This document shows positions 4,641 to 21,105 of a DNA stretch of 64,000 bases, piece after piece (the first letter of the stretch is position 1; every line of letters begins with the position of its first letter). Made by a program: the position numbers and the translations under genes. The notes beneath the pieces are model-generated. The model saw nothing but the letters and a program-made list of their open reading frames with translations, searched no databases and was not told where the DNA came from. This stretch comes from a phage, in the NCBI GenBank assembly GCA_036252695.1, contig GCA_036252695.1_4122.1. One strand, written 5' to 3'.

Positions 4641-4887
4641 GCAGTTTACAAATCTTTACAATTGCCGGTATTGACTTATTTTGTCAGTACTGGCATAATG
4701 TATTCATTGGCAGATAAGCCGTAGCCCATAGGGTGCGGGAGTGTATCTATAGAAAAAGTAGTTTAGTATAGTTACAATTGTGCACCCGGTGGGTTAGCTG
4801 TTGTCATGGGGTATATTATGCCAGTACTTGATAATGCTGTCAATACTTTTTTAATATTCAGTACTGAAAACTATTTTTAAAAAGTAC

Positions 4888-9065: not shown

Positions 9066-9209
9066 ATGAAAACTTGTCAATGTGGTAAAAAATCTATTAC
9101 TGGTTTAAAGCGGGGCGTTGCTCTTTGTCAGTACCATTATAATTTACAAGTATGGGGTAAAGAATGGGCCGACCAGGTGGAAGCAGCAAAGAAAGCAAAA
9201 AGTAAGTAA
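9066..9209 (+). CDS. small Cys-rich protein (47 aa; not in ORF track)
   Basis: RBS gagga; MKTCQCGKK...LCQYHYN; own promoter cassette. Confidence 0.5.
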   Translation: MKTCQCGKKSITGLKRGVALCQYHYNLQVWGKEWADQVEAAKKAKSK

Positions 9210-9288
9210 AAATATTATCACAGTACTATTGACATAGTTTGATAGTACTGACATAATAGATTTTATCAAGACAACTGAGGAAAATAAA
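9208..9288 (+). repeat. duplicated ~80-bp promoter module (copies at 9502-9590 and 12580-12662)
   Basis: aaatattatcacagtactattgacatagtttgatagtactg(a/g)cataata in all three copies. Confidence 0.85.
9229..9257 (+). promoter_or_regulatory. sigma70 promoter
   Basis: -35 TTGACA 9229-9234, 17-nt spacer, -10 CATAAT 9252-9257. Confidence 0.7.
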
Positions 9289-9501
9289 ATGGCTATCATC
9301 ACTAAAATCAAAGTAAGTAAAACCCTGGTTAAACTTGAACAAGTGAAAGCAGGTTATAAAGTATCTTGGTGCGGTATGTATCGGATGTTCGCAGATATTG
9401 ATGAAGCAATCAATTATTACAGCGACACGGTTAAAAACTTTGTTCGTGCTGATGTGGTTATGGCAGTGGCAACGCACAAAGCAGCGAAAGAAAGTAAGTA
9501 A
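9289..9501 (+). CDS. hypothetical early protein (MAII family; paralog of 12663..12842)
   Basis: RBS gagga; ORF track. Confidence 0.65.
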   Translation: MAIITKIKVSKTLVKLEQVKAGYKVSWCGMYRMFADIDEAINYYSDTVKNFVRADVVMAVATHKAAKESK

Positions 9502-10767: not shown

Positions 10768-10914
10768 ATGAAAGCATCAAAAAAGAGTAATACTAAGAAA
10801 GCATGTTCACCTTTCGCTGGGGTATTCCCTTTACGTTTTGTTGATGAAGTAGTTTCCTACCCGCCGGGCCTTACTCCTGAGATGGTAGAAAGTTTGCGTA
10901 AATCTAAAAAATAG
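10768..10914 (+). CDS. small hypothetical protein
   Basis: RBS aagga; ATG 10768. Confidence 0.55.
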   Translation: MKASKKSNTKKACSPFAGVFPLRFVDEVVSYPPGLTPEMVESLRKSKK

Positions 10915-10917
10915 TAC

Positions 10918-10974
10918 TTGCAATTAGTTTTTAGTACTGTATAATAGTTTACATGAAGGGGAAAACGTTCCCCT
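10918..10974 (+). promoter_or_regulatory. sigma70 promoter + 5' stem-loop cassette
   Basis: -35 TTGCAA 10918-10923, -10 TATAAT 10940-10945, hairpin aggggaaaacgttcccct. Confidence 0.75.
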
Positions 10975-11248: not shown

Positions 11249-11256
11249 AATAATAC

Positions 11257-11316
11257 TTGCAATTAGTTTTTAAACGCGTATAATGTTTTACATGAAGGGG
11301 AGAAATGATTCTCCCC
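11257..11316 (+). promoter_or_regulatory. sigma70 promoter + 5' stem-loop cassette
   Basis: -35 TTGCAA 11257-11262, -10 TATAAT 11279-11284, hairpin ggggagaaatgattctcccc. Confidence 0.75.
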
Positions 11317-11334
11317 AATAACAGGAGAAACAAA

Positions 11335-11487
11335 ATGAAACAATACAACGCTCGGTTTGATGTTACTATCGGTAACGGCAAAGGTCAATTCTCTTTCAGT
11401 ACTCGCAAAAGTTATACAGAAAACTTCCTGCGTAATTGTGCACTGACCGCCGCACAAATTAAACATTACTTTCAGGCTAAAAAATGA
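11335..11487 (+). CDS. small hypothetical protein
   Basis: RBS caggag; ATG 11335. Confidence 0.55.
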   Translation: MKQYNARFDVTIGNGKGQFSFSTRKSYTENFLRNCALTAAQIKHYFQAKK

Positions 11488-11573
11488 AATCATTAGCTTA
11501 TTACAGTTCGGCCCTGGTCGGTGCATTGATCGCGGCGTTGTTAGTAACCTATCTATTCTTTATGGTGATTTAA
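11484..11573 (+). CDS. 29-aa hydrophobic micropeptide (putative single transmembrane helix)
   Basis: ATGA overlap with upstream stop; MKSLAYYSSALVGALIAALLVTYLFFMVI. Confidence 0.35.
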   Translation: MKSLAYYSSALVGALIAALLVTYLFFMVI

Positions 11574-11717
11574 ATGAATCCAACAGGTTTAAACTATAAA
11601 AGTTGTTCGGCGTTTACGAAAGCAAATAAAGCGAATGCACGTAAAGCGAAAGTAAAGGAGTACATCAAGCAAGGCATGACGCGAAAGGCGGCGATTCTAA
11701 AAGCTAAAAATAAATGA
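11574..11717 (+). CDS. 47-aa basic micropeptide
   Basis: Starts immediately after stop of preceding micropeptide; Lys-rich. Confidence 0.3.
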   Translation: MNPTGLNYKSCSAFTKANKANARKAKVKEYIKQGMTRKAAILKAKNK

Positions 11718-11910
11718 AAAAAGTGGTTGACTCCGGTCAGCCATTTTGCTATTATATATTCATTGAGAGATAGCTCACTAGCCCACAGGGTGCATAAGTG
11801 TATCTATTATATAAGTATTGAGTACTGAAAACTATTTTAAAAAAGTACTTGCAAACTATCTCAATAAGCGTATAATGTTTTACATCGAAAGGGGAAACGG
11901 TTTCCCCTGG
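11717..11910 (+). repeat. dispersed ~190-bp intergenic module (hairpin/promoter + AGCCCAC box + promoter cassette)
   Basis: Near-identical to 19012-19205; contains TTGACT 11727-11732 / TATTAT 11750-11755 inside a hairpin, and agcccacagggtgc. Confidence 0.85.
11849..11908 (+). promoter_or_regulatory. sigma70 promoter + 5' stem-loop cassette
   Basis: -35 TTGCAA 11849-11854, -10 TATAAT 11871-11876, hairpin aggggaaacggtttcccct. Confidence 0.75.
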
Positions 11911-12284: not shown

Positions 12285-12344
12285 TTGACAATAGATTATA
12301 GTACTGTATAATAGTTTACATCAAGGGGAGAAAAACTTCTCCCC
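12285..12344 (+). promoter_or_regulatory. sigma70 promoter + 5' stem-loop cassette
   Basis: -35 TTGACA 12285-12290, -10 TATAAT 12307-12312, hairpin ggggagaaaaacttctcccc. Confidence 0.75.
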
Positions 12345-12366
12345 ACTAACAGAGAGAGAAAACAAA

Positions 12367-15724: not shown

Positions 15725-15900
15725 AAAAGGGATTGACTCCGGTCAATCCCTTTGCTATTATATACGCATAGAAACAAATTAGCCCACCGGGTGCATAAAT
15801 GTATCTATTGTTTGCTGGTGGCTAGTACTATCAAGTACTGAAAACTATTTTTAAAAAAGTACTTGCATTGTACTTAGAATCAAGTATAATGTTTTACATC
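15725..15900 (+). repeat. dispersed ~175-bp intergenic module (copy similar to 20941-21105)
   Basis: Perfect hairpin gggattgactccggtcaatccc with embedded TTGACT/TATTAT; agcccaccgggtgc box. Confidence 0.85.
15864..15890 (+). promoter_or_regulatory. sigma70 promoter (upstream of conserved leader copy 2)
   Basis: -35 TTGCAT 15864-15869, -10 TATAAT 15885-15890. Confidence 0.65.
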
Positions 15901-18144: not shown

Positions 18145-18387
18145 ATGATTACTTTAGAAAAACGTATCAAAGAGACTACAACGCTGGTGGAACTGTTAAC
18201 CGTTCTTAAATGCCGGGTAACTCCATTCAGTACACCGGACTTTATCAACATGGTGGACGTTAACGGTCGATATCGTATTGCGGTCGAACAAGGTACGGCA
18301 AAAGTATTCAGTACTAAAAATACGCGTGAAGTATTCCACGCAGTTCAAGTAAAAAAAGTAGTTGCCATTGATAGTAAAGTACTGTAA
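18145..18387 (+). CDS. hypothetical protein
   Basis: ATG 18145 after acggggaaaacaaa RBS region. Confidence 0.55.
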   Translation: MITLEKRIKETTTLVELLTVLKCRVTPFSTPDFINMVDVNGRYRIAVEQGTAKVFSTKNTREVFHAVQVKKVVAIDSKVL

Positions 18388-18418
18388 TATAGTTTCATTA
18401 ACTCAAGGAGTCAACACA

Positions 18419-19003
18419 ATGCGTAACTATACTAAATTCATCCGTTCACTTCATGCAATGGAAACCAACAAAGAGATCCTTTCAGCTTGTCGGTTAGCTG
18501 GACTGGAGATCGTCGGTGCGGGTTCTTCCCGTATTGTATTCGCTTTAAATGATCGGTTAGTGATTAAGGTCGCGAATTGTGATGCGGGTGTAGAACAAAA
18601 TGAAACTGAATGTAAGGTATGGAATTTTTTAGATTATGACCGTCCGCACCTTAAACAGTACTTTGCTAAAGTGCATATGCATTTATGCGATCCTGATAAT
18701 CTGTTTATTGTTATGGATCGTTTGAGTACTGCAAGCAAAGGCAGTGTAAAGCATGTAAACGCGTGCAATGAGTTAAAGTACAATATTAAACGTAATACGG
18801 TAGAACGCCATCACCATTTCGCTGATGCTCTCAATCACGTTGATGATACATTATCCACACTAACGATAAGAGATATCAGAAAACAGAATATCGGCCAGGA
18901 TCGCAACGGCTTGATTAAAGTACTTGATTACGGTTTAACCCGCAATATCTGGAATCAGTACTATAAAAAACGTGATGTTAACGCGATAACTATAACACGA
19001 TAA
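18419..19003 (+). CDS. putative minimal Ser/Thr protein-kinase-like protein
   Basis: Gly-rich loop GAGSSRIVF, VIKV lysine, catalytic-loop-like IRDIRKQNI, DFG-like LDYG; RBS aaggag. Confidence 0.45.
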   Translation: MRNYTKFIRSLHAMETNKEILSACRLAGLEIVGAGSSRIVFALNDRLVIKVANCDAGVEQNETECKVWNFLDYDRPHLKQYFAKVHMHLCDPDNLFIVMDRLSTASKGSVKHVNACNELKYNIKRNTVERHHHFADALNHVDDTLSTLTIRDIRKQNIGQDRNGLIKVLDYGLTRNIWNQYYKKRDVNAITITR

Positions 19004-19011
19004 AAAAGATT

Positions 19012-19205
19012 AAAAAAGGGATTGACTCCAGTCAGTCCCTTTGCTATTATATATTCATTGAGAGATAACTCACTGACCCATAGGGTGCGGAAGTGTATCT
19101 ATTATATAAGTATTCAGTACTGAAAACTATTTTATAAAAAGTACTTGCAAACTATCTCAATGAGCGTATAATGTTTTATATCGAGAGGGGGAAATGGTTC
19201 TCCCT
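19012..19205 (+). repeat. dispersed ~190-bp intergenic module (near-identical to 11717-11910)
   Basis: Same hairpin/promoter, acccatagggtgcgg box and promoter cassette. Confidence 0.85.
19145..19205 (+). promoter_or_regulatory. sigma70 promoter + 5' stem-loop cassette
   Basis: -35 TTGCAA 19145-19150, -10 TATAAT 19167-19172, hairpin agggggaaatggttctccct. Confidence 0.75.
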
Positions 19206-20940: not shown

Positions 20941-21105
20941 AAAGGGATTGACTCCGGTCAGTCCCTTTGCTATTATATACGCATAGACAAAAACTAGCCC
21001 ACAGGGTGCAGAGAAGTATCTATAAGATAGTTAATAACGGTGAGTAACTATCTGCTGGTGGATGTAATGCCAGTACTCAAAACTATTTCAAAAAAAGTAT
21101 TGACA
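20941..21105 (+). repeat. dispersed intergenic module (copy similar to 15725-15900)
   Basis: aaagggattgactccggtcagtccctttgctattatatacgcatag + agcccacagggtgc. Confidence 0.85.

Follow-up and report, generated by a model that had tools for sequence, protein, structure and literature searches.

The 64,000-nucleotide stretch of phage DNA analysed here (NCBI GenBank assembly GCA_036252695.1, contig GCA_036252695.1_4122.1; hereafter the window) contains at positions 11335-11717 three very small open reading frames (ORFs), designated ORF1, ORF2 and ORF3. On comparative sequence evidence, ORF2, which encodes a 29-residue membrane-like peptide, and ORF3, which encodes a 47-residue basic peptide, are genuine conserved genes and form with the 50-residue ORF1 an operon that ends after its third cistron. 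The unit spans about 460 nucleotides (nt) and comprises, in order, a sigma70-like promoter, a 5' hairpin, a strong ribosome-binding site (RBS), ORF1, ORF2, ORF3 and an intrinsic terminator:

11257-11284, plus strand: sigma70-type promoter, TTGCAA-16 nt-TATAAT, matching 10 of 12 consensus positions; near-identical promoters precede the other small genes of the region.
11297-11316, plus strand: stem-loop in the 5' untranslated region, GGGGAGAAATGATTCTCCCC, just downstream of the predicted transcription start (ACAT).
11323-11328, plus strand: Shine-Dalgarno (SD) sequence AGGAGA of ORF1, the sole strong RBS in the unit.
11335-11487, plus strand: ORF1, 50 residues, phrog_7119 (function unknown; E=1.3e-27), which the coupled micropeptide genes follow.
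11484-11573, plus strand: ORF2, 29 residues, MKSLAYYSSALVGALIAALLVTYLFFMVI, sharing an ATGA overlap with ORF1.
11574-11717, plus strand: ORF3, 47 residues, MNPTGLNYKSCSAFTKANKANARKAKVKEYIKQGMTRKAAILKAKNK, phrog_29913 (E=3.4e-21), in the same frame as ORF2.
11723-11748, plus strand: intrinsic terminator, GTGGTTGAC-TCCG-GTCAGCCAT followed by TTTTG, the dominant helix in both minimum-free-energy and centroid folds.

The coding case was built on an alignment of the unit with its counterparts from 17 relatives (87-100% nucleotide identity; 18 sequences including the window), and the statistics were calculated on 16 of these 18 sequences, leaving out CMSTMSU and Turkey3. The starts of ORF2 and ORF3, the stop of ORF2, the ATGA overlap and the TAAATG junction are kept in all 17 good-quality genomes. 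The exception is CMSTMSU (MH494197.1, marked 'UNVERIFIED', positions 684-1057), in which single-base insertions and deletions (indels) and a 6-nt gap break the end of ORF1 and ORF3; such defects probably stem from faulty sequencing or assembly. All three ORFs display a third-codon-position bias in the called frame only. ORF1 has 3, 2 and 14 variable sites at the first, second and third codon positions, a ratio of non-synonymous to synonymous variation (pN/pS) of 0.09 in frame versus 1.9-3.9 in the shifted frames, and 16 synonymous versus 6 non-synonymous events (P=1.6e-7). The corresponding values for ORF2 are 4, 1 and 8 variable sites, a pN/pS of 0.24 versus 1.99 and 1.38 in the shifted frames, and 8 synonymous versus 6 non-synonymous events (P=0.0067). 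For ORF3 they are 9, 8 and 26 sites and a pN/pS of 0.27 versus 1.4-1.5, with 16 synonymous and 9 non-synonymous events across codons 21-47 (P=4e-6).

The manner in which the two micropeptide genes vary is informative as well. ORF2 is intact and free of indels in all 17 good-quality genomes, and its six amino-acid replacements (K>R, S>T, L>F, L>V, V>I and L>M) are all conservative and retain hydrophobicity. Purifying selection is thus detected for ORF2 in the called frame only, on n=14 events within one genus, and the frame can be taken with good confidence to be a real gene. ORF3 occurs in two N-terminal variants that are set apart by an in-frame 6-nt indel, one genome carries an in-frame 15-nt deletion, and in some records one extra A in the terminal A-run moves the stop by two codons. 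The combination of purifying selection and frame-preserving indels makes it very likely that ORF3 is a real gene.

ORF2 opens with the short polar stretch MKSLAYYSS, after which a 20-residue hydrophobic helix (residues 10-29, ALVGALIAALLVTYLFFMVI) extends to the C-terminus. The helix is rich in Ala, Gly, Leu, Val and Phe, and the nine polar N-terminal residues bear one positive charge. The Kyte-Doolittle value over a 19-residue window is 2.69, which ranks second among the 259 ATG-initiated ORFs of 25-60 residues in the window, and the grand average of hydropathy is 1.78. One uninterrupted, bilayer-spanning hydrophobic helix is the architecture of a single-pass small membrane protein. An initial annotation, made from the sequence before the present analysis, had described a 29-residue, almost entirely hydrophobic, transmembrane-like peptide followed by a Lys-rich 47-residue ORF; both descriptions hold, the second through the 13 Lys and Arg residues of ORF3. 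Hydrophobicity was rejected as proof of ORF2, because chance hydrophobic mini-ORFs are common in this AT-rich genome; it is conservation, not hydrophobicity, that places ORF2 and ORF3 beyond chance. Mini-ORFs of 25-60 residues with a membrane-like segment number 21 in the six frames of the window, against 8.7 +/- 3.3 in shuffled sequences. The top-ranking hydrophobic ORF, also of 29 residues (18636-18725), sits out of frame inside a 213-residue gene (18362-19003) and is a chance ORF. GC content was rejected as proof in the same way, as the 40% GC of ORF2 is equalled by 20% of 90-nt windows.

According to the positive-inside rule, the positively charged end of a membrane protein stays cytoplasmic, and because of this rule ORF2 would be expected to adopt an N-in/C-out topology. 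Because the hydrophobic helix extends to the C-terminus, insertion would follow release from the ribosome, so that ORF2 is best described as a putative tail-anchored single-pass peptide with post-translational insertion. In the PHROG collection no family was found for ORF2, the best match being phrog_32088 (E=0.005) over the hydrophobic stretch.

ORF3 contains 13 Lys or Arg residues and one Asp or Glu, giving a net charge of about +12. Its profile match to phrog_29913, a family of unknown function, is full-length (residues 1-47 versus positions 1-45 of 45; E=3.4e-21). AlphaFold predicts a helix at residues 10-32, a turn at QGMT and a second helix at residues 37-45, with a predicted local distance difference test (pLDDT) score of 79. 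A Foldseek search of the PDB with this model returned nothing below E=9.9, and a PDB sequence search returned thermonuclease only (E=1.3). Identification of ORF3 as a ribbon-helix-helix or helix-turn-helix DNA-binding protein was rejected: Pfam gave no match at E<=10, no solved fold corresponded, and the predicted first helix, at 23 residues, is too long for a ribbon-helix-helix protein. Matches in NCBIfam to the aureocin A53-type leaderless bacteriocins (E=0.038) and to actinobacterial integration host factor (IHF; E=0.032) were sub-threshold, at 13.6 and 14.7 bits against curated cut-offs of 27 and 60 bits; they were not used and are most likely driven by composition.

The three genes are tightly joined. 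The ATG of ORF2 overlaps the TGA of ORF1 as ATGA at 11484-11487, and the ATG of ORF3 abuts the TAA of ORF2 with zero spacer, as TAAATG at 11571-11576. The statement of the initial annotation that the first peptide is directly coupled by ATGA and followed without a gap by the 47-residue ORF is therefore accurate to the base; that ORF2 and ORF3 share one reading frame (11574 = 11484 + 90) had not been remarked on. Both junctions are invariant in all 17 good-quality genomes. The predicted duplex between the SD sequence and the anti-SD is -7.4 kcal/mol for ORF1, -2.5 for ORF2 and -2.8 for ORF3, and this combination of stop and start codons that overlap or abut with weak downstream RBSs is that of a coupled operon. 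Since a strong SD is present at ORF1 only and the ATGA and TAAATG junctions are invariant, we infer that termination-reinitiation drives the translation of ORF2 and ORF3.

A consensus-like sigma70 promoter stands directly upstream, as expected of an early gene transcribed by the host RNA polymerase, and both of its hexamers are invariant in the 18 aligned genomes. The 5' stem-loop is kept in relatives, some of which have changes on both arms (GGGGGGAAATGGTTCTCCCC). The terminator starts 5 nt past ORF3; its stem covaries between phage genera (GTGG/CCAT, GGGG/CCCC and GTAC/GTAC), and the records of G17 and GAP32 already mark it as a terminator. Two further features recur around the early promoters of the region. 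A GGGGA(N)TCCCC stem-loop lies between the start site and the RBS of each early transcript (11297-11316, 11891-11907, 12326-12346 and after most region promoters) and is likely to be a 5' stabiliser or a translation-control hairpin. The palindrome AGTACT directly precedes the -35 element of early promoters (AGTACTTGCAA) at 10910-10945, 11249-11284, 11841-11876, 12285-12312 and elsewhere, and is repeated directly before the -10 element (AGTACTGTATAAT) in most relatives and in neighbouring promoters of the window; AGTACTGAAAA also closes the non-coding elements described below. This may be a regulator binding site.

Identity of the window to Escherichia phage Turkey3 is 99.7%, and at this unit the two sequences do not differ. 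The related records that were matched number 37 and belong to the PBECO4/121Q-type jumbo phages of E. coli, genus Asteriusvirus, with genomes of 310-386 kb. In fEgEco12, whose direct terminal repeat is 20,993 bp long (PMC13070987), the counterpart of the operon lies at 9106-9488, and records that include both terminal repeats contain two copies of the operon. By sequence comparison, then, the operon is located inside the long terminal repeat (~21 kb) of an Asteriusvirus jumbo phage. Its surroundings are a series of very small plus-strand genes, nearly each with its own near-consensus sigma70 promoter and 5' GGGGA...TCCCC hairpin. In the jumbo phage PA5oct, a relative, the genes of the terminal repeat are early, highly transcribed and dependent on the host RNA polymerase (PMC7318152). 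For CBB, also related, short ORFs behind clusters of RpoD-like promoters were proposed to be early genes for host takeover (PMC5259590). By analogy with these two phages, the present operon is probably expressed early as well.

ORF1 and the two micropeptide genes differ in distribution. The profile match of ORF1 to phrog_7119 is full-length (residues 1-50 versus positions 3-52 of 52; E=1.3e-27), and homologs at 40-56% identity are found in RaK2, K64-1, Muenster, EJP2, KP13-7, many rV5-like phages and POP15. A possible assignment to SAM_SMF was sub-threshold (20.5 bits versus a cut-off of 27) and was not used; the structure model of ORF1 has a pLDDT of 66, and its structural matches are at noise level only. 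In every inspected case, including RaK2, slur16, EJP2, KP13-7 and POP15, the ORF1 homolog is monocistronic, and downstream of it these five phages have either an intergenic gap or some unrelated gene, with no hidden transmembrane or basic mini-ORF. By tblastn against 50,697 phage records, ORF2 was found in 35 Asteriusvirus records only and ORF3 in 24 Asteriusvirus records only. A HMMER search of 1.8 billion representative proteins with ORF3 returned one real relative cluster (45 residues) and a repetitive 585-residue protein, and scans of viral and metagenome contigs for the junction pattern added 121Q and two contigs, with no new haplotypes. Because ORF1 relatives elsewhere precede a gap or an unrelated gene and lack ORF2 and ORF3 counterparts, an ancient three-gene module was rejected. 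As ORF1 is widespread and monocistronic and ORF2 and ORF3 are confined to Asteriusvirus, the pair is, judged from these sequences, a genus-specific addition to an older gene; neither this nor the terminal-repeat setting had been recognised in the initial annotation.

The two peptides are not new to databases, only uncharacterised: public protein collections already include both exact sequences, labelled 'hypothetical' or 'uncharacterised'. Among 15 inspected relatives, ORF2 is annotated in seven (ELP-22, fEgEco12, WPEC3, phAPEC6 as gp520c, SD-15, SHEFM2K and SD-1) and omitted in eight (Turkey3, PBECO4, 121Q, SP27, BF17, UB, G17 and A4), and ORF3 is annotated in 13. The claim that such genes are routinely missed by annotation thus applies to ORF2 in about half of the inspected genomes and to ORF3 in only two of the 15. 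A 29-codon frame that about half of the deposited annotations omit is yet under selection at the peptide level.

The proposed account, which we regard as probable though by no means assured, is of a coupled early trio in which ORF2 resides in the inner membrane and ORF3 acts near it on an anionic partner. Host sigma70 RNA polymerase would initiate at the TTGCAA/TATAAT promoter and produce a messenger RNA with a 5' hairpin and a single strong SD sequence before ORF1. Ribosomes ending ORF1 would re-initiate at ATGA to translate ORF2, and those ending ORF2 would re-initiate at TAA-ATG to translate ORF3, so that the three products would be made together; transcription would stop at the hairpin 5 nt past ORF3. 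ORF2 would be inserted, after release from the ribosome, as a tail-anchored single-pass peptide of the inner membrane with its Lys2 end in the cytoplasm. ORF3 would be a cytoplasmic polycationic peptide with the shape of a helix-turn-helix, placed on an anionic partner that could be nucleic acid, the ribosome or inner-leaflet lipids near ORF2. Within the opening minutes of infection, the ORF2/ORF3 pair may act on the envelope or the nucleoid of the host, in a host-takeover or exclusion function.

Several observations weigh against this account. The selection test on ORF2 draws on only 14 substitution events in one shallow clade of 88-100% nucleotide identity, the AlphaFold model of ORF3 is a single-sequence model, and the amphipathic moment of ORF3 is modest (<=0.41). 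Searches of phage records, representative proteins and contigs found no homologs of ORF2 or ORF3 outside the Asteriusvirus clade bar the two metagenome contigs, and no named family, whether of toxins, defence proteins or others, was matched above threshold by either peptide in Pfam, NCBIfam, PADLOC, PDB sequences or Foldseek; the toxic or regulatory role suggested in the initial annotation is supported neither way. A literature search turned up no expression or proteome data on these gene products, and the phAPEC6 paper makes no mention of gp519-521.

The proposed account has to be set against several others. ORF2 could be a relay frame, the translation of which passes ribosomes from ORF1 to ORF3 while the peptide itself is functionless and degraded. 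Both ORF2 and ORF3 are without a good SD sequence, the ATGA ... TAAATG layout is exactly what a relay requires, ORF2 is genus-restricted and falls in no family, and hydrophobic mini-ORFs readily arise in an AT-rich genome. A relay needs no set amino-acid sequence, however, whereas ORF2 shows 8 synonymous to 6 conservative changes (P=0.0067) and a pN/pS of 0.24 versus 1.4-2.0 out of frame; its length is free of indels in 17 genomes, and a relay could be much shorter than 29 codons. With the peptide sequence itself under constraint, a mere relay is unlikely.

ORF2 could also be a membrane-damaging toxin, in the style of a type I toxin or a single-gene lysis peptide, that shuts off the host and is tempered by ORF3 or ORF1. 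The type I toxins TisB and ZorO have 29 residues each, and ORF2, with 29 residues and one hydrophobic helix, fits in size and shape; the strong promoter and the presumed expression at the start of infection would also suit such a role. Searches of ORF2 against models for Hok/Gef, Ldr, TisB, Ibs, ShoB, ZorO and DinQ gave no match, with none in Pfam or NCBIfam even at E<=10 and none in PADLOC. A scan of the minus strand gave no good promoter over ORF2 or ORF3, the nearest being a 9/12 site at 11388-11360 inside ORF1, although a consensus scan cannot exclude one, and no convincing antisense RNA was found over ORF2. The ORF2 helix, moreover, lacks charged and strongly polar residues as well as a polar tail, and an early lethal membrane lesion would be harmful to a phage with a long cycle. 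A toxin is consequently an improbable explanation.

A more adventurous extension of the proposed account, to which we assign a low probability, is that ORF2 and ORF3 are an undescribed two-part device that arose in Asteriusvirus, in which a tail-anchored peptide and a co-translated polycationic helix would meet at the inner face of the host membrane. If so, the device might tether or neutralise DNA, RNA or a membrane machine during takeover, or might exclude a superinfecting phage. In a variant covered by the same low estimate, occasional readthrough of the single in-frame TAA would yield a 77-residue membrane-anchored polycation. Both the device and its readthrough variant are consistent with the shared frame, the missing spacer, the presumed obligatory co-expression and a phylogenetic distribution that the two ORFs have in common.

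Another reading is that ORF2 and ORF3 are one gene, expressed by readthrough or suppression of the TAA as a 77-residue membrane-anchored polycation, or an old gene split by a nonsense mutation. The zero spacer, the shared frame (11574 = 11484 + 90) and the in-frame arrangement without an indel in 17 genomes agree with it, and an anchor with a basic tail would be sensible under the positive-inside rule. Every genome, however, has the TAA with a conserved ATG immediately after it; of the stop codons, TAA terminates most efficiently in E. coli, which disfavours readthrough, and the 64-kb window holds no transfer RNA gene of any kind. No unsplit homolog was found, the representative search with ORF3 giving only the 45-residue relative, and the 77-residue fusion matches no family. 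A single gene is accordingly very unlikely. That neither ORF is a gene, both being chance open frames in a 3' untranslated region, is hardly credible, for although the ORFs are short, chance hydrophobic ORFs are frequent and several annotators skipped ORF2, three independent coding signals (third-position bias, synonymous excess and in-frame indels) contradict it and the terminator stands after ORF3, not after ORF1.

Downstream of the operon, a second promoter is embedded in the terminator:

11727-11755, plus strand: promoter within the terminator, TTGACT-17 nt-TATTAT, which starts the next transcription unit and is outside the micropeptide operon.

In this cassette (11723-11755) the -35 hexamer TTGACT is part of the 5' arm and loop of the terminator hairpin, and the -10 hexamer TATTAT follows 17 nt on. 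The cassette is repeated in the window at 15733-15761, 19022-19050 and 20948-20976, and it was found in 23 stretches of viral contigs (RaK2, 121Q, CBB, GAP32 and others). Its loop has the form T(C/T)CG, being TCCG here and TTCG in RaK2 and Munch, and TTGACT is invariant while the stem covaries between genera.

Beyond the cassette lies an element (11762-11845) that contains the motif ARCCCAYNGGGTGC at 11780-11793. The motif occurs nine times, on both strands, in the first 21 kb of the window, where 0.03 copies would be expected, and not in the remaining 21-64 kb; the other copies are at 2668(-), 4723(+), 4782(-), 6703(-), 13448(+), 15781(+), 19075(+) and 20996(+). Across Asteriusvirus and the RaK2-, GAP32/CBB- and Munch-type phages there are 34 distinct copies. 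In most copies a strong promoter stands upstream, with its predicted start 13-25 nt ahead of ARCCCAYNGGGTGC, and no ORF follows. A hairpin of 3-5 bp precedes it in 16 of the 17 copies tested, with at least 12 different stems and with its position and purine-rich loop kept. The motif itself can form ACCC/GGGU round a triloop and is paired in all 29 of the 29 copies, where A-U and G-U alternate at the base; among these copies there was no double-sided covariation. A third hairpin was unsupported, as its pairing (57%) did not exceed that of shuffled sequences. In some minus-strand copies a clear intrinsic terminator closes the element, about 100 nt after the start. Three pairs of copies are convergent and overlapping: at 4700-4810 of the window, elements 4723+ and 4782- face each other, so that their predicted transcripts overlap and are mutually antisense, and the same arrangement is present in phage contigs L030 (1246+/1336-) and L036 (8801+/8873-).

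The segment 11718-11800 is the most conserved part of the locus (9 of 83 sites variable) and aligns at 74-80% identity with its counterpart in phages that share only about 50% identity at the protein level. No Rfam family reached the gathering threshold anywhere in the window, and locally there was only noise at E<=10. The ARCCCAYNGGGTGC elements look like candidate early small RNAs or leaders, driven by promoters and without ORFs, for which the two abundant non-coding RNAs of the PA5oct terminal repeat offer a comparison (PMC7318152). This neighbouring family may be more interesting than the micropeptides.

The same segment has also been annotated as protein-coding. A 33-residue 'ORF' with a TTG start (MTPVSHFAIIYSLRD...) at 11727-11828 and 19022-19123 is entered as a coding sequence in ELP-22, WPEC3, SD-15 and SHEFM2K. 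It is probably spurious, because the -35 hexamer of the embedded promoter doubles as its start codon, the frame covers the conserved non-coding element, and its two paralogs in the window differ mainly by amino-acid-changing substitutions. Annotation of this locus can thus be corrected in both directions: ORF2 should be called, and the downstream 33-residue 'ORF' probably should not. Small membrane peptides are an expected class in phage early regions, and nothing here points to a new principle. The jumbo phages of this group nevertheless have hundreds of unexplained genes, and host takeover is decided in their terminal-repeat early region. The three peptides, of 50, 29 and 47 residues, are easily synthesised or expressed as experimental targets.

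Among known systems, ORF3 resembles the aureocin A53 family and actinobacterial IHF in being about 47 residues long, very Lys-rich and helical, and differs in that its scores are far under their cut-offs. ORF2 shares with the type I toxins (TisB, ZorO, Hok, Ldr, Ibs and ShoB) its size, its hydrophobic-helix build and a gene that is often left unannotated. Unlike these toxins, it matches no family, has no detected cis-antisense or overlapping small RNA gene, is carried with a strong promoter in a polycistron rather than translationally silenced, and has no charge in or after the helix. Among the small single-pass membrane proteins of E. coli are modulators of larger membrane proteins, such as AcrZ (49 residues), MgtS (31), PmrR (29), KdpF (29) and CydX (37). 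ORF2 is like these in length, in its one hydrophobic helix of about 20 residues and in its very short polar N-terminus, and also in its G13-A17 small-xxx-small pattern, of the kind that serves helix packing. It differs from them in having no sequence similarity, in being phage-encoded and in being the middle cistron of a coupled operon. Finally, the pair resembles the early host-takeover micro-genes of the T4, T5 and T7 early regions and of the PA5oct terminal repeat (PMC7318152), in that micropeptide genes lie in a terminal-repeat region dense in tiny genes behind host-type promoters and their homologs are confined to a narrow group of phages.

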